The notes under the pieces: generated by a model
The model's input: the letters and a program-made list of their open reading frames with translations, nothing else
Database searches by the model: none
What the model was told of the DNA's origin: nothing
Assembly (NCBI GenBank): GCA_010405405.1
Contig: MU004238.1
Location: 1,251,530-1,315,529, forward strand
Direction: 5' to 3'
DNA length: 64,000 nt
Source of the DNA: Microthyrium microscopicum
Lineage: Eukaryota
Made by a program: the position numbers and the translations under genes
Shown here: positions 44,838 to 53,374 of the stretch, piece after piece
How positions within the stretch are numbered: the stretch's first letter is position 1
Layout: the number at the start of each line of letters is the position of its first letter

Positions 44838-47060
44838 TCAGTACCTTCTCCGTCCGTCAAATCTATCCCACTCATAATCCTCTTCCAGCTCCTGATACCC
44901 ACCACCGCTCCCCCTTCGCCCACTCACACCCACCAAATTTTCTATGGTCCGACTACCTCTTCGCTCTCCATACATACCGCCATTACCGTCACTGCGCTTC
45001 CGCGGTATGCCTCGTGGCGATATATTCCTCTCTCCACCCCAACTTGACGACGCACGCGTACCTCGCCCTCCTTCCCAATTATAACCGCCTCCAAACTCAC
45101 TACTGTGCTCAGACATCATATCAAACTCATCACGCCTTCCCGCATGATACGCATTGCGCTCAAGGTGTTCCCGCATACTATCGATTTGCTCATGCATGCG
45201 TCCCTTTCGTCTAGAAGGATATTCCACCATGGGAACTGTTGGTGGCTGAGAACTCTTGCGCCGATTCGCACTCTGTTCTGCGTTCGCCAGCATACTTGCA
45301 CGTCTTGACGGTGGTCGACGCCCGGAGGATAGGGGTGGTGGATAGTCATCTTCATAGTCAGACAGCACTGGGCGGTCGTGGTGGTGATGGTGGTGGTTCT
45401 CGACGACACGTGTGGCTATTACTCTGGGTGCGGACTCGCGCGGTGAGGGTGGGTATATTGTGCTGTTGCGGCGGATTGTGCGGGTGGTTACTCGGCCTTC
45501 GCGCGGGCTTGCGCGCTCGAGAGAGTTCTGGCGTGGGTACTGGCGTGGGTAGGAGTTGTGTCGGGATTTGCTGCGTGCGTCGCGGAAGTTTTGGCTTTGG
45601 TGCTTGGATTGCTTTTGGTTGCGGCCGCGTTGGTAGGGGTGCGAGATGCTTCCTGAGTGTGAGGTTGGGGGGGTGCTGAAGTTGCTGCCTGAGTCGGCGT
45701 CGGAGGAGTATTGGTCGTCTACTTCGTAGCTGTCATCGGATCCAGAGCGGCGATGGCGGATGGTGCGGCGGTGATGGCGGGTATGGTGGTGGTCTGGGGA
45801 TGGGGAACGTAGGGCGCCAGACATGCGTGGGGAGAAGTTCTTGCCAGAACGACGCTTGTGGTTGTTGTTGGAGTCGTCTGAGTCGGTGCCATCAGAGAAG
45901 GATTTGGGCTTGCGGAGCTCATTGAGGAATTTGAGGATGTTGGGGTCCGTTTGCTGATTCTTCTGTTGGCCTTTCTGCTGGCCTTTGTTGTTGTTGTTCT
46001 TCTGGGGAGGCATATTCACAATGTTTTGGATCGTAGTGGGCTGAGGAGCCATATTCTGAGCTGGTTGGAGAGGCGGCATTTGCCCGAAGTTGAGTGGAGG
46101 AGGCCCGTTATGATGCATCATTGGTGGTGGAGGAGGAGCACCATGATGCATCATCGGTGGAGGCGGTGGTGGCATCTGTCCTCCCATGTTAAGGGGTGGA
46201 GGCGGAGGAGGAGCGCCGTTCCCTTTTGGTTGCTTTCCAGCATTCTGTTGATTCATATTGTTGTTGAGAGGACCATTCATATTTGCGTTTCCTGGGCCAT
46301 TCATGTTCTGTGGACCATTCTGGCCCATGTTCATCCCCTGTTGACCAGAAGCATTCAAGTTCATTTTAGCCATAGAGTGAGTGATGCTATGTTGCGGGCC
46401 ATCAGGATTCTCCGTTCGCTTGAGAATTACTCGAATCTGGATTGTTTCAACTCCTTTGACCTGATAGAAACCGCCCATGATCTCTTTGCGTGTAATGTCA
46501 AGCATAGCGAGATCCCACATGTAATTAGGATTCTTTTCATTGTCGTTTTGAGTTTGTACTGCCTCATCTACGGCGTCTCGCATGGAGTCGGAAGAAAGAC
46601 TATCGTACTGGGCCATAACCCCTTTTTTGTTGTTGTGCATGTTGTTTACTGCTGTCAAATCATCGGTAGACACTCTCTGGGGCGTCATTCGAGATCTACG
46701 CCATGTTGGTCTCTTACCGGGCTCTGCTGCAGCGCGGCGAAGAACGTATGCTTCATATCTATGTTGCGAATCTGAGTTTGAAGCCGTCTTCTGATTGAGA
46801 TCTTTGGGCCACTGTTGAGTAGTCTTGTTCTTGAGCTGCTGATTGTTACCAATGGGGAAAGATATGCCAGGACCGACGTTTCCACGCGGCTGCTGAGCGC
46901 CATCGTTGTTGCGTGGAAGGCTCATAGGCTGCAAAGAACCCATGGGCTGTGAAGGTCCCATAGGCTGTGGTTGAAATTGATGTGGAGGAAGTGGCATTCC
47001 AAATGGAGCTGGAGGAGGTGGTGGTGGTTGACCACCCGGATTACCCTTTTTGGTAGCCAT
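44838..47060 (-). CDS. Low-complexity Pro/Gln/Asn/Arg-rich protein with a small folded domain
   Basis: 740-aa intronless ORF. Ordered segment RYEAYVLRR...PTWRR...WDLAML...IRVILKR is flanked by P/Q/N/M- and R/S/H-rich tracts. Confidence 0.75.
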   Translation of the reverse strand: MATKKGNPGGQPPPPPPAPFGMPLPPHQFQPQPMGPSQPMGSLQPMSLPRNNDGAQQPRGNVGPGISFPIGNNQQLKNKTTQQWPKDLNQKTASNSDSQHRYEAYVLRRAAAEPGKRPTWRRSRMTPQRVSTDDLTAVNNMHNNKKGVMAQYDSLSSDSMRDAVDEAVQTQNDNEKNPNYMWDLAMLDITRKEIMGGFYQVKGVETIQIRVILKRTENPDGPQHSITHSMAKMNLNASGQQGMNMGQNGPQNMNGPGNANMNGPLNNNMNQQNAGKQPKGNGAPPPPPPLNMGGQMPPPPPPMMHHGAPPPPPMMHHNGPPPLNFGQMPPLQPAQNMAPQPTTIQNIVNMPPQKNNNNKGQQKGQQKNQQTDPNILKFLNELRKPKSFSDGTDSDDSNNNHKRRSGKNFSPRMSGALRSPSPDHHHTRHHRRTIRHRRSGSDDSYEVDDQYSSDADSGSNFSTPPTSHSGSISHPYQRGRNQKQSKHQSQNFRDARSKSRHNSYPRQYPRQNSLERASPREGRVTTRTIRRNSTIYPPSPRESAPRVIATRVVENHHHHHHDRPVLSDYEDDYPPPLSSGRRPPSRRASMLANAEQSANRRKSSQPPTVPMVEYPSRRKGRMHEQIDSMREHLERNAYHAGRRDEFDMMSEHSSEFGGGYNWEGGRGTRASSSWGGERNISPRGIPRKRSDGNGGMYGERRGSRTIENLVGVSGRRGSGGGYQELEEDYEWDRFDGRRRY

Positions 47061-49165
47061 GTTGACACTGTATGATATGAAGATGAGATACTCTCACGCT
47101 GAAGTTTAGCTTAGCGTAGGACAAAACTTTGAACTTATAAAATGTCAAGCAAGGTCAAGTATCAAGGCCAGATCAGGAATTCACAGGTGGACTCTTATTT
47201 ATACACTCTAACTTGTGATATTACACATGAAAGAGAAAGAGCCTGACTGCGCCCATTGTGAACTGCTTCCACCTACCATTGCCGGAATGTCGAGGAAATC
47301 GAAGTCCCGAGAATCATTTAGATATCCAAGCATTTACTGCAGCCTGCATGATACCGGCCAGGCGTTGCAGGCTTGAAGTTGCAGAACAGGGCGACGTATG
47401 AGACCGGTGAAGATATGCTGGAGGGCTCACCGAGAGGAAAAGGAGGGAAGAGTGCAGGATTTTGCCTAGATTTGCCTATTCTTAACATTCGGCCAATGGA
47501 TTCGAAAGTCTTGGTATAGCCATTGGCCAACTACATGAATTCCCAGATCTCGGTGAAGCACAGCAGACACTGCATCACTTGGATATCCTCAATTCTAGAC
47601 AACAACATTTGATTCTGCCATATTCGGCGCGGCTACTGTACGTCAGTTCCAGACTTGGTAAGCAATTGCGAAGTCCGATAGATTCTTAAATTGAAAACCA
47701 ACGACAAGATTTGGTCAATATGACCTCGTCTACATCAGTTCTATGGCCACAAGGCTGAAGCTGCAGCCACAGAGAGTAATACACAGCAGCTTGTTTGTAC
47801 TGGGAACGATTTTGACTGGAGGTTACGCGGCCGGGCGCTATCACTTTTGTCCACATGGGAAAGATAAACTGTGGAACCGATCAAGAATGCCTTGAACACA
47901 TAATTGATATTTCAAAGTACAGCAAATTATTTAGATCAATAGCATGTTGTATTACGCCAGACGAACTTCGCCACTTCCATACAATACCACAAGGTTGACC
48001 GGAGGTGTCAAGGGTTGGAACATGTGCAACCTTTATGCATCTAGTCAAGCTCGTATAACAAGCATTAGGAGGCCCTCGTGTAAATAGTACCACCAACTCG
48101 GGGCATTGTTATCTGCGCCGGATGGAGTTATGCTAACGAGAATCCAGCCAGAGGCGGAACCAGATCGATTGACGAACCATTGGAGCAGATCGAATGCGGC
48201 TACCAATGAAATGTTTTGTTTCATATGGTTGTTGCATAGTGATCAATGACCGGTAGCATAACTTACGATCTGGCATCCAGCCTGGTGGTGTGAAGAGTTG
48301 ACATCCGGCTAGAATGACTGTATCTTCTAAGCGTAGCCAAGTAAACGCTGCATTCGGCTTTAAGAATCCGTGCTTTAGAGGTAGAGGATGCGGCTCATGG
48401 TGAAAGTCCCAGATAGGTCTCTCTTGAAAGCAAATGATAGCAGCTTGGCAGCGTACTCGAGCAATGGCATACGCTCGAAACAGATGAGACAGGTCTCTTA
48501 TTTGCAGGCTTTTTCAGCCTGTCCAGGGCGTCGTCTTCCTGCTGTGATCATGTTGTTGCGATATTGGAAATGTCATACCTTGATGCGAGATAGAAGTAAG
48601 GAGTAAGGCAGACTTGCATATAACAAGTTCATTTGAAATCATGCAATCAGGGATACAAGCAAGAAAAAATATAGACTGATAGACTTTGTTACCCTTTCTT
48701 TTCTCATGACCCTCGTTGGTCATGAGGACCGATGCTGCAGAGCATCGTGATTCCTTTTTGCTAGTGTACATACTTTACCTCAGCTGGTAGTTCAATTCTA
48801 CCACGCAAAAGCTTTGTACCTCTGCTTCGTGCAACTCACCCGAGAGCTTACCCTGCTCTTAAAGTTACATAGGAGTAATAATACAAGTAAAGAAAAGAGA
48901 ATAAACAATGAGACATCCTCTGACTGGAAGGGTATTTGTAGATCTTGGCCATAATATGGAAGTGGTGAAAGCGTGGGTATTTAGAAAATGTCTGGGCTGT
49001 GCTCGCAGTATGTGAGATGAGGATGGTCGACGGAATGCGATGTTGCCAGGAAGCCTGATTTCGTAATAGTTTGATGAGACAGAATGACAATCTTACCCAT
49101 TGATGGTGAGAAGCAGGGGAGAGAAAGCGGCAATTACCTGGCAATTACCGTTGAAAATGATGTTC

Positions 49166-50508
49166 TTAGTATCTCCGTTTCGATCTCGAGTCGTCGTACT
49201 GGTCGCCTTCGTGCGGTCGCTTTCGGTGTTCATCCCGACCATACCCACCTTCACGATCGCGGTCGCGATAATTGCCACCGCTGCTGCCGCGAGGAGCAAC
49301 GGGCTCGCGATTGCTGCCACTTCCGCGGGCCCTATCATCGTAAGAGCGTCCGCCATTGCGATCCTCATACCTTCCATTGGCTCCTCGGTCTCCACGGTCG
49401 CTTCCACCCCTATCTCCGCCATAGCCACCTTCTCTCCGGGGTCCTCTAGGTCCAGATGGTGCGCCATCCGGGGCAATTGGAGGACCATTTCCGTTGGATT
49501 GGTAGCCCACTCCGTTTCTTCCGCCACCTCTATCTCCGCCAAATCCTCCACGGAAGCTGCCACCTCGATCCTGGAACCCACCTGCGCCTCCTCGAAAGCC
49601 TCCGCCACGGCCGCCGCGAAAGCCACCGCCAAAGTCGCGCTGTCCTCGAAATCCTCCTGGGCCAGCTGGAGGTCCATTAAATCCTCCGGGTCCCATAGGT
49701 CTGGAGGAAAGGGCTTTCGTGTATCCGCGGCCGCCAAGCCCACCCCCGAAGCGACGAGGGCGCCAGCCATTAACTGTTCGACCTCTCTCTACATCGACTA
49801 GAACACGACGATCTTTGATACGTATACCATCGGTTTCCTTGTACGCGGCTGTTTCGTGTCAGTTCTGAGCATTTACGCTTACCTGCAATGAGTTATTGGT
49901 TATATCTTACCCTTCATATCACTTTCACGTTCAAACACAACGAAAGCATAACCTTTCTGTTTCTTCTTTTTTGGGGCATCTTTATCAGCGAATGGGTTAG
50001 TGACGATCCGAATCTATGCAAGTTAGTACGGTTAATGGATAGAACACGAGATTGCATACTCTTTCAATAGGACCAAATCGTCCAAACTCGTTTTCAAGAT
50101 CTTTGACTTCAGTGTCATAGTTCAAACGAGCAACGAATAAGGTCTTGTAAGCATCGCCGAAACCGCGCTTCTTTCCCTCTTCTGTGGGATTGTCTACACC
50201 ATTGTGTTAGTACTAGATTTGTATCGAAAGATCCGGTAAAGCTTACACTCTTTGATATCTACTGTAAGCATTTTCTCCAGCTTTTCTTTGCGTTCCAGCT
50301 TGCGTCGATCGCGACGCTGTAGCCAGCTCTCAGTAGGGTTGTAAACATCAGTAGCTTTGTATTCTTCGAGAGCCTGCAGATATTGACCAACACCTTCTAC
50401 TGGAGCAGTGCGTCGCTCTCCGGGCGCATGATCGCAAGGAAGAAGGTAACGCAAGGGTGGCCGTGGAGTGAAGAGCGCAAGTAGATTCGGCGGAAGTTTG
50501 TCGGTCAT
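49166..50508 (-). CDS. SNP1: U1 snRNP 70 kDa protein
   Basis: [25 protein letters not shown] ([42 protein letters not shown]) and an RGG/RD tail. Three introns (~50194-50246, ~50014-50059, 49849-49910). Confidence 0.95.
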
Positions 50509-50865
50509 TGCTGCGGTCCGCGATGAATTGTACGGCGAATGGTCAAGTGTCGCTAGTTGTCCTGCATATCTCAGCGCTCAATAAAGATGCGCTGAAGTTC
50601 TTGGAGATGAAGGAGAGATGGATGGATGAGTATCAGGCAGCTGTCATCTGTCGCGTTGCAAAGGAGTTTTGGAGTTTCACCCTTTGAGCGCGCTAGATTC
50701 ATCACGTGCTAGCGTTTGACGCCTAAACTTTTTGCAACAGCCGCGGATCAGCAATGGAAAAAGGATCACATACGCCGACTCTTGTGACTTTACTCCAGGC
50801 CACCATTACAGCTCACTCCATGACATACACTCCAATCTCAGAACGATCGAGTCATTGAGGTAGAC

Positions 50866-51366
50866 ATGGTAGTGAGAGCAATTCACGCCGTGTCCAAGCC
50901 GCAGGTATGCTCTGTACAGAATGCGACAACAACTTCACTTTACTAACACTAGCAGAATGGCGTGGGCGCATTCGTGGTCCAATGCAAGAAACTCGAGTTT
51001 TACTACTGCGACTGGGCTGGCTCTTCCAAGGGAATGAATTCATTCATCCGCCATCAACTTCCCCTCTTCGCTCAACGAAATCCACAAGTCGAGATGACTG
51101 TCACGCCTAGGCCACGCAGACACCCGTTCGTACGAGCATCATACGTTAATGGTCAAGCAAAAGTCGTTTGCCTGCGAAATCTCGAGAAACTTCAGATACT
51201 CGACAAAGTCCGGCTGATGAAGAGCGACAACGGCGAAAAGCTAAAGCGAGTCAACAAGCCAGTCACCAGTATCAATGACGGCGTTCGAGGCATATTCAGT
51301 CATTTGCACAGCAACAAGTTGAGCATCGGTCTGGAGGGCATGGAGCTCAAGAAAAAGAAGAAATGA
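50866..51366 (+). CDS. MRPL51: Mitochondrial large-subunit ribosomal protein mL43 (yeast MRPL51)
   Basis: MVVRAI...PQ|NGVGAFVVQCKKLEFYYCDWAGSSKGM. Intron ~50905-50955. Confidence 0.92.
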
Positions 51367-51774
51367 AGGGCTGCTCAACTCCATCATGAAAGGTCGCACG
51401 CAGATGCAAGAATCACGAGCCTGACATACATCTGACCCTACGGGGGTATTTGTTGCATTATCCAAGGCCTTGGATGCCTACAGACAGTCACTGTGTATGG
51501 GCGAGCATATAATCCAGATATCTGGGCAATCAGAGGCCTATAAAAGCTCGGGTAAAGCGTTGATACCCAAAGCTCAAGCAGTGTATTATACTGTACAAAT
51601 AGAAGATCATATTACACGTCGCTTGACTGCCTTGTGTACTCGAGTTTCCCATGCAGGACGGTTCCAACAACAGTTGAACGGAAGATAGAATATCACGTAA
51701 GGATATCCACGGCCAACGAGTAACAGACTGTATGTATGTATGCATGGTATTATTCGCTTCAAATATTGTCTATT

Positions 51775-53374
51775 CTATGTTGATGATAGGGGCTCTTTCT
51801 TCATGGTTTGAACAAACGCCTGCAGAGCGATCTCAGGTTCTAGAGCCTCAATTAGCAACAAGATCAACAAACACGGATAGTGAATGTAACTTACGATATG
51901 CTGGTACCGTGTGACCAGCGTTATAAACCCGCAGGAACGCCAAATTCTTAACCGTCTTGAACGATCCCTTCTCCTTCCCATTGACCTTATACGGCTGCAA
52001 AGCTCTCGATTTGAATTCCGCCTGGCCTGGATATTTGACATCGTTCGCGGTATAGAAGTTGCCCATCCAATTACAGATCCAATCCGAATCGCCTGCCCAT
52101 ACCAAGACTTGTGCTCCACTATTCACAACTTCCTCCAAAGCGCCCAAGAAGTTCCTCGAATCTGCTAATACGTTAGAAACTGTTCTCCATCATCTCCGGC
52201 TCCATATTCAGACTTACCATCGCCTGTACTTTGGAACCTCGCTTGTATCTGTCTTGGACACTCATTGTACTTCTGCTTCGCTCCAATCATCGTCTGAACC
52301 GCCGGCTGCTGCAACCACTTCTCATATGTCTGCGGTGGCCACTTGCCACGCCTCCCCTTGCGCACATCATACACATCAAAGTCGCCCGCCATACTAATTG
52401 GGCTCTCTATGCCAATCTTGCAAGTATTCATTGCACTCCTACACGACGCGTCCGTCGAGTCCGCCCAGCATTTTTTCAGCGCTGGCGCACAACTCTGTTC
52501 CAACAGCTGCGTATACCGTCCCGCTGTAGTTGAGCTGATCAACGGCTTATGCGAATTGTTCGCCGCAAAGTCAATCATGCCCTTGTAGGCATCATACGGA
52601 TTGACCCACGCATTGTTTATGCCGAGGGCGGAGAAGTTTATCTTGGTGGCGTTGATTTTGCCAGAGGCTATGGCTTTGTTTTGGTCGAGAATGTATTTTG
52701 CGAAACCAGGACCGTAGTGGCCACCGTAAGACTCGGTCCAGATTGCAAACTCGCGGGAGGTGTATTCGGGGAATTTGGCGTAAAAAGCTTGTATCAGGTT
52801 CCAAATGAGTTTGGCGGCGCCCGTAGTTGAGTCGACGGTGCTGCTGCCGGTGCTGAAGCCGACGCCAATGGGTTGGTCAATGTAGAGCATATTGGCGTAA
52901 TCGTTCCAGGAGTATGGGTTGTTGGATGGCTTGTCCATGGCTTCGCCATTGTTCCAGGAGCAGGGGCCATGTTCCTGAAAAGCACATTGTCGGTGATGGC
53001 TATGAAGAGTGCTGAATTGGATAACGTACCTGGAATAGCCCGATCATGGACGAACAGCCAGGTCCGCCATTGAACCAGGCTGCCAAAGGTGCCTTCTCTG
53101 GATCTTTCCGCGCTTCAAAGAACCAGAACCACATGTTCATGTTCGCTCCCACTGACAGGTACCCACTGAACTGCTTAACCTGCTTATTCTCCTCACACAA
53201 GCCCGGATTCGAAGTAAACTCCAATGTAGAGCCCGTCTCCGCATGCTCAAATATCGTCACCGTCGCGCCATTTCGCTTGAATATCCGAGTCGTTGATCCC
53301 TCTGGCTGCTTCTTCTCAAATAGTCCACCCGCCGCCGCCAATCCCGCCAGTGCCAAAAGTCCAAGAACACGCAT
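51775..53374 (-). CDS. Secreted serine carboxypeptidase (S10 family)
   Basis: Signal peptide MRVLGLLALAGLAAA, WFNGGPGCSS, DQPIGVGFS, ESYGG (Ser), GDSDWICN (Asp) and AGHTVP (His). Three introns. Confidence 0.93.

Follow-up and report, generated by a model that had tools for sequence, protein, structure and literature searches.

Donor-like motifs behind the stop codon of fungal U1-70K genes: a conserved candidate U1-binding element

The stretch of the Microthyrium microscopicum genome analysed here (64,000 nt; hereafter, the window) carries on its minus strand the gene for U1-70K (SNP1/SNRNP70), which has four exons and codes for a protein of 393 amino acids with a U1snRNP70_N domain (PF12220, E 1e-29) followed by an RRM (PF00076, E 2e-14) in Pfam searches. 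A protein identical to it is on record from a dothideomycete (P0003). Exon boundaries were taken from the sequence and from joints in X1, presumably an RNA run, the contigs of which are unstranded and drop rare spliced forms; a single X1 contig spans 50630 to 47551 and has joints at all three U1-70K introns. The parts of the gene that are needed below are as follows.

50508-50247, minus strand: exon 1, coding part (sequence and X1 joints)
50193-50060, minus strand: exon 2 (sequence and X1 joints)
50013-49911, minus strand: exon 3, ending after E-S-D-M-K (sequence and X1 joints)
49849..49910, minus strand: intron 3, 62 nt (sequence and X1 joints)
49848-49166, minus strand: last coding exon, to the stop codon (sequence)

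Between the U1-70K stop codon (49166) and position 47708, the X1 contig has no joints, although rare junctions could escape such contigs. It also lacks a plus-strand GT..AG intron of 51 nt (47657-47707) and must therefore be a fusion of two converging RNAs, so that it does not give the 3′ end of U1-70K; since it is both unstranded and fused, either of the two RNAs may carry the distal donor sites of the window. The spliced plus-strand RNA (47551-47708) converges on the U1-70K 3′ region and lies back-to-back with the gene at 47093. Its strand contains no ATG-initiated ORF longer than 72 aa lying wholly inside 47551-49100, and it is possible that this RNA is an antisense transcript overlapping the U1-70K 3′UTR. 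The neighbouring minus-strand open frame at 44838-47093 (about 740 aa, with many proline, glutamine and arginine residues, and present in X1) has no match in Pfam, while the plus-strand gene at 50769-51839, arranged head-to-head with U1-70K, has a 51-nt intron and a PF05047 (L51/S25/CI-B8) domain.

A sequence-only reading of this locus had pointed to a cluster of 5′ splice-site motifs downstream of the stop codon, and all nine GT motifs that it listed were found at their minus-strand coordinates. We scored GT sites by the number of matches to the 9-base complement of U1, with a cut-off of 6/9 that was fixed before any orthologue was viewed; the complement was derived from what we take to be the U1 5′ end, rather than from the source genome's own U1 snRNA. 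Scanning 12 of the 15 hits of a 5′-end pattern in the source genome yielded no U1 match, and an RF00003 search yielded no hit anywhere in that genome, with the controls likewise silent. Eight of the nine motifs score at least 6/9, AGG/GTAACA (48692) scoring lower, and a further site not listed before, TAT/GTAACT at 48868, brings the total to nine sites in 584 nt behind the stop codon. They are arranged as follows (the slash precedes the GT).

49132..49151, minus strand: proximal doublet, ACG/GTAATT and CAG/GTAATT, 11 nt apart
49091..49131, minus strand: pyrimidine-rich stretch, then TGG/GTAAGA; matches the conserved proximal module (tract plus GG/GTAAG)
48871..48908, minus strand: U-rich tract upstream of the distal donors
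48834..48871, minus strand: distal donors, TAT/GTAACT, then the doublet AGG/GTAAGC and CGG/GTGAGT, 12 nt apart
48768..48781, minus strand: overlapping donors GAG/GTAAAG and AAA/GTATGT
48743..48834, minus strand: two decamers resembling the loop of U1 stem-loop I, judged to lie outside the element
48573..48695, minus strand: outlying AGG/GTAACA (48692) and AAG/GTATGA (48578), of uncertain membership in the element

The repeat forming the proximal doublet is self-complementary, and its predicted hairpin is not significant (z -1.5). From 49165 to 48651 the minus strand has no CTRAY branch motif, and an Rfam scan of 46000-52000, carried up to E 5, gave no match within 48570-49150. Below the distal donors, the heptamer TGCTTGT occurs on the minus strand at 48655-48661; it is present in 7/29 of the orthologues described below (2.6 expected). 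Elsewhere in the source genome, a stretch unrelated to the donor cluster (L124:1592-1715) matches the TPP riboswitch above the gathering score.

At the 6/9 cut-off, these sites are denser than the local background. The antisense strand has three sites in the same 584 nt, none of 2000 shuffles reached nine, and in the window, divided into 1270 overlapping bins with an average of 1.98 sites, nine were reached solely in the U1-70K 3′ region. Among 142 3′ flanks of long ORFs in the source genome, with an average of 1.96, U1-70K alone reached nine, and the 3′ flanks of U1C and LUC7 showed no donor cluster on inspection. At a cut-off of 7/9, the excess is not significant (2 sites versus 0.39 expected, p ~0.054). 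In another 400 kb of the source genome, one of 1280 bins had nine sites, in an AT-rich stretch, and two unrelated places with 9-10 sites turned up among 30 loci selected by a single doublet pattern, which is not rare there (43 matches, with 121 for its reversed control). Seven further loci of these 30 were dense; five of them were read and resembled clusters antisense to ORFs, AT-rich repeats or intergenic chance clusters. Within this genome alone, then, the donor density is rare, not unique; since other dense spots exist, a single genome is insufficient, and the case against chance rests on conservation.

Orthologues were obtained from a metagenome scan, in which the best 80 of 449 confirmed stretches yielded 76 loci. 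Of these, 42 including the window had a fungal C-terminus and at least 400 nt past the stop codon, and removal of 12 near-duplicates left 29 plus the window. By best hit, the 29 are Dothideomycetes-, Sordariomycetes-, Leotiomycetes-, Eurotiomycetes- or Lecanoromycetes-like, with some unplaced. Their first 600 nt past the stop contain 196 donor sites, versus 74 on the antisense strand (p 7e-6 for sense versus antisense) and 71 after shuffling, so the excess on the transcript strand extends to the orthologous 3′ regions. The hexamer GGTAAG, which was picked after the sequences had been viewed, occurs in the same regions 76 times, versus three times in antisense and three in shuffled sequence, with at least one copy in 25/29 orthologues and none in 4/29. 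Three loci (L015, L016 and L028) have no more donor sites than their own antisense strand. An unbiased k-mer ranking of the orthologue 3′ regions placed donor words at the top and pyrimidine runs next, and the profile of sites peaks at 0-200 and 300-600 nt, falling to background beyond +700. The signal does not depend on the eight Pleosporales-like loci, as the remaining 21 have 127 sites versus 47, and 46 versus 2 copies of GGTAAG. It is also confined to this gene: 83 3′ flanks of neighbouring ORFs from 20 of the orthologue loci average 1.96 sites versus 6.76 for U1-70K, and 11 non-fungal U1-70K loci have 2.1 sites per 600 nt. What is conserved of the element is the arrangement of its motifs, the sequence around them having turned over, and the 3′ region of fungal U1-70K very probably contains a U1-binding element under selection. 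A divergent fungal U1-70K (L031:1383-1530) has four GTGAG-type donors after its stop codon, including a pair spaced by 13 nt, and could widen the range of the element to fungi outside the main classes.

The sites are not scattered at random within the arrays. Doublets spaced 9-14 nt apart number 36 pairs in the 29 orthologues, versus 12.7 expected and a maximum of 25 in 2000 draws, and are found in 20/29 orthologues versus 2/29 on the antisense strand; this spacing would seat two U1 particles abreast. The 40 nt upstream of the first GGTAAG are 70% pyrimidine, versus 53% region-wide (25 loci), and the distal pyrimidine tracts often end in YAG directly before GT. Site variants among orthologues comprise GTAAG, GTGAG, GTAGG and GTATG. 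Compared with 55 crudely predicted introns, the 97 GTAAG sites much more often have G at -1 (80/97 versus 20/55) and seldom T at +6 (12/97 versus 27/55), a combination predicted to pair well with U1, unlike that of donors in use.

A regular 3′UTR intron, a kind of element that the sequence-only reading mentioned, is unlikely. A branch point with an acceptor is found 0.24 times per region versus 0.32 in background and is absent within about 700 nt of the stop in 25/30 loci, the window among them, and X1 has no joint in the 3′UTR. Four orthologues (L002, L004, L005 and L074) are intronless loci of transcript type in which the sites are unspliced; transcript-type loci extend 496-841 nt beyond the stop codon and cover both modules. 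The donors fall in the last exon of these contigs, in which no poly(A) site was located. The clearest case is L074, which lacks the 74-nt intron 1 of the genomic locus L068 yet is ungapped and colinear with it for 496 nt after the stop. A further candidate transcript, L063, was dropped because it is colinear with the genomic locus L010.

A well-paired secondary structure is predicted in part of the set. In the eight Pleosporales-like loci, the last (distal) doublet lies within a 21-bp consensus hairpin that is 91.6% paired and whose 3′ arm corresponds to TGATCTT, found in 9/29 orthologues (1.6 expected). Changes in this hairpin are mostly one-sided, of the G-U kind, and covariation in it did not exceed that of shuffles (88/500). 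The distal sites open less readily than shuffled sequences (p 4e-5), and AGGGTAAG is kept in 19/29 orthologues. A proximal hairpin masking the donor was rejected, as it did not go beyond composition (p 0.21) and its consensus fold was weak. The two decamers that had been likened to the U1 stem-loop I loop are present as written, but the likeness is not conserved: CACGAA occurs in 1/29, TTGCAC in 0/29 and TCACGA in 4/29 orthologues, none above background, and in the predicted fold of the window neither decamer is placed in a closed loop. Mimics of stem-loop I or of the U1A loop were accordingly rejected as part of the element.

The last coding intron has peculiarities of its own. Intron 3 follows D-M-K/R, in a position that we take to be that of human intron 7, and has G at +5 in 2/25 distinct copies versus 27/30 for introns 1-2 (the intron 1 assigned in L043, which is part of this comparison set, may be misplaced). 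The window, with a strong intron 3 donor, is one of the two exceptions. An internal donor is present in 15/25 copies versus 1/30 of introns 1-2, 12-27 nt before the branch A, and has its counterpart in the window:

49877..49885, minus strand: internal decoy donor CAG/GTAAGC in intron 3, GT at 49882, 23 nt before the branch A

Use of this decoy in the window, or retention of intron 3, leads to a stop three codons after D-M-K (M-K-G-K-I, then stop). The conserved intron 3 decoy is new here, having been absent from the sequence-only reading. Seven Pleosporales-like genomic loci have no intron 3; these average 8.9 3′UTR sites versus 6.2 in 15 loci (p 0.02), a difference that comes from a single lineage and is given no weight here. 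Long versions of the intron (179-216 nt) were seen in L033, L035, L044, L060, L066, L069 and L070, and most of them contain, between the branch point and the acceptor, a GGCCCTCAAGCT-like motif together with a GC-rich inverted repeat; these features might represent an alternative acceptor or, as with exon 7a of vertebrates, a poison microexon. In L015, L026, L028 and L036, the loci with the weakest 3′UTR clusters, intron 3 has a second branch-like CTRAC upstream of the internal donor, mostly without a following AG.

We propose that decoy 5′ splice sites in the U1-70K pre-mRNA would sense how much intact U1 snRNP is present. What sequence and conservation show is a set of U1-complementary clusters and doublets in the 3′UTR, behind pyrimidine tracts and without branch point or acceptor, joined in most lineages by an extra decoy in the weak last coding intron, 12-27 nt ahead of its branch point. 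U1 would pair with these decoys through the exon-side G bases, while the rare T at +6 and the missing acceptor would prevent them from being spliced. By analogy with known systems, plentiful U1 would occupy the decoys, which would retain the transcript in the nucleus and/or delay 3′-end formation, leading to degradation, and would impede removal of intron 3, thereby introducing a premature stop; with little U1 available, more U1-70K mRNA would escape. That U1 binds the decoys without splicing and gives negative feedback on U1-70K seems probable, though by no means assured. Of the U1-sensing 3′UTR element put forward in the sequence-only reading, the cluster itself stands, being above background, strand-specific, within about 700 nt of the stop, conserved across several ascomycete classes and, as such an element would predict, unspliced in transcript contigs, while the feedback is what we infer. 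We favour a negative sign for it because the gene product is itself part of U1 and because regulation is negative in the known cases (PMC3798272, PMC5473595). Since the abundant mRNA keeps every site and the protein is a core part of the spliceosome, repression could only be partial.

As the effector step, direct inhibition of poly(A) polymerase (PAP) is doubtful. In BPV-1 and HPV-16 late mRNAs and in the mammalian U1A mRNA, U1 sites in the terminal exon are described as acting via contact of U1-70K with the C-terminal tail of mammalian PAP, a tail absent from yeast PAP, which resists U1A (PMC5071671). Since U1A cannot inhibit yeast PAP, we prefer the route by which human cells retain and degrade mRNAs whose donors are intact (PMC9074902), which would supply this step; a fission yeast homologue, Red1, exists according to the same paper. 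The route is presented there as quality control of misprocessed RNAs, not as built-in autoregulation. In Neurospora, exosome knock-down raises snp1 mRNA 2.3-fold and slows its decay, an effect that is not specific, as yhc1 and four other mRNAs respond alike (PMC4549623). U1C, the product of yhc1, has no cluster in the source genome.

The closest known systems each share part of this arrangement. In the cross-regulation of vertebrate U1-70K and U1C, through SNRNP70 intron 7 and exon 7a, the gene is the same and the cryptic donors are likewise clustered, conserved and largely unused, with a proposed role in homeostasis; they are bound by U1, as the fungal sites would be by complementarity, and in human, mouse and zebrafish they activate an upstream alternative 3′ splice site in the intron, leading to NMD (PMC3798272). 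In fungi, the introns of which are short, most sites lie past the stop codon and have no matching acceptor, and neither enrichment of branch point plus acceptor in the 3′UTRs nor an alternative joint in X1 was found that would correspond to the exon 7a type of 3′ splice site. The U11 USSE with its U1 site in the U11/U12-65K 3′UTR, a type of element also assigned to U11-48K, likewise consists of closely spaced tandem donors, unspliced, in the 3′UTR of a snRNP protein gene, and its bound donors cause retention and block cleavage and polyadenylation; it is, however, composed of minor-spliceosome U11 sites in animals, ultraconserved in sequence and tied to a choice of 3′UTR splicing (PMC5473595), unlike the U2-type GTAAG/GTGAG sites of U1-70K, which are not U12-type and are conserved as a motif arrangement. 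The element would thus work like the exon 7a switch and the USSE, but it fails a defining feature of each and is best described as a variant rather than a member. Self-limitation of a splicing factor, in filamentous fungi and animals alike, is also reported for Neurospora srp2 (SRSF5 in animals), an SR gene relying on intron retention and NMD, in an article whose main text mentions neither 70K nor UTRs (PMC4379411). Intronic pseudo-donors of animals are the subject of PMC13100119, and telescripting is named for human, mouse and fly (PMC5499120).

Other explanations of the cluster have to be weighed against this proposal. The donors might be used occasionally, either creating a 3′UTR intron junction that triggers NMD or undergoing first-step cleavage only, with the spliced form unseen at steady state. 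The YAG that often ends the distal tracts right before GT would fit such use, vertebrate exon 7a products become visible only under a block of NMD (PMC3798272), and NMD-coupled splicing acts on Neurospora srp2 (PMC4379411); yet the shortage of branch points with acceptors, the lack of X1 joints and the colinearity of L074 with L068 speak against it, and splicing does not need tandem doublets, so that we consider it unlikely. U1 binding might instead act positively, blocking early cleavage in favour of a long, stable or well-translated 3′UTR, or aiding the weak last intron, in a feed-forward coupling of U1-70K to U1 snRNA. The length of the transcript-type contigs, which pass through both modules, agrees with this, as does the setting of poly(A) choice by U1 concentration in animals (PMC5499120), but a decoy so close to the intron 3 branch point would be expected to impede splicing, and the snRNP self-regulation loops used for comparison are negative (PMC3798272, PMC5473595); we regard a positive role as quite unlikely.

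It is less probable still that GGUAAG serves to bind a protein or to form a structure and merely resembles a donor. The Pleosporales-like hairpin around the distal doublet, the resistance of distal sites to opening and the retention of AGGGTAAG could be read in this way, but the sites vary exactly as partners of U1 would, covariation and the proximal hairpin did not exceed their controls, and the same type of motif recurs within intron 3. That the cluster is a chance one spotted post hoc is extremely improbable: about 1 in 1300 bins does reach nine sites, other clusters exist in the source genome, and the test at 7/9 is marginal, but 29 other genomes showed the excess again under the score fixed beforehand, and clusters are missing from the neighbouring flanks and the non-fungal U1-70K loci. 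Chance is already refuted for the family, although individual outlying sites of the window may be due to it. Against the decoy reading count the four loci without GGTAAG, the three at antisense level and the window intron 3 donor, which is not weak. Returning to U1 decoys as the preferred reading, we tentatively extend it, as a possibility short of an even chance, to a splicing-independent U1 loop of filamentous ascomycetes, in which tandem, part-hairpin-masked 3′UTR decoys would cause nuclear retention or 3′-end failure, and in which the U1-70K sensor would share its origin with that of animals, sensing having moved from the intron to the 3′UTR, wholly so in the lineage without the intron.

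Full-text searches, covering few subscription papers, yielded no description of this element in fungi; supplementary gene lists (3′UTR introns, NMD targets) could name it. Work on a non-splicing role of U1 has so far concerned animals, animal viruses and plants. What the cluster points to is conserved fungal self-regulation of the U1 snRNP, for which we found no precedent in print, and, if the proposal is true, the cluster would be the first natural substrate of a non-splicing U1 role in this kingdom. It would also provide a short, mutable natural reporter for fungal U1 outside splicing, in retention or 3′-end control, and a case in which a regulatory element may have shifted between intron and 3′UTR.
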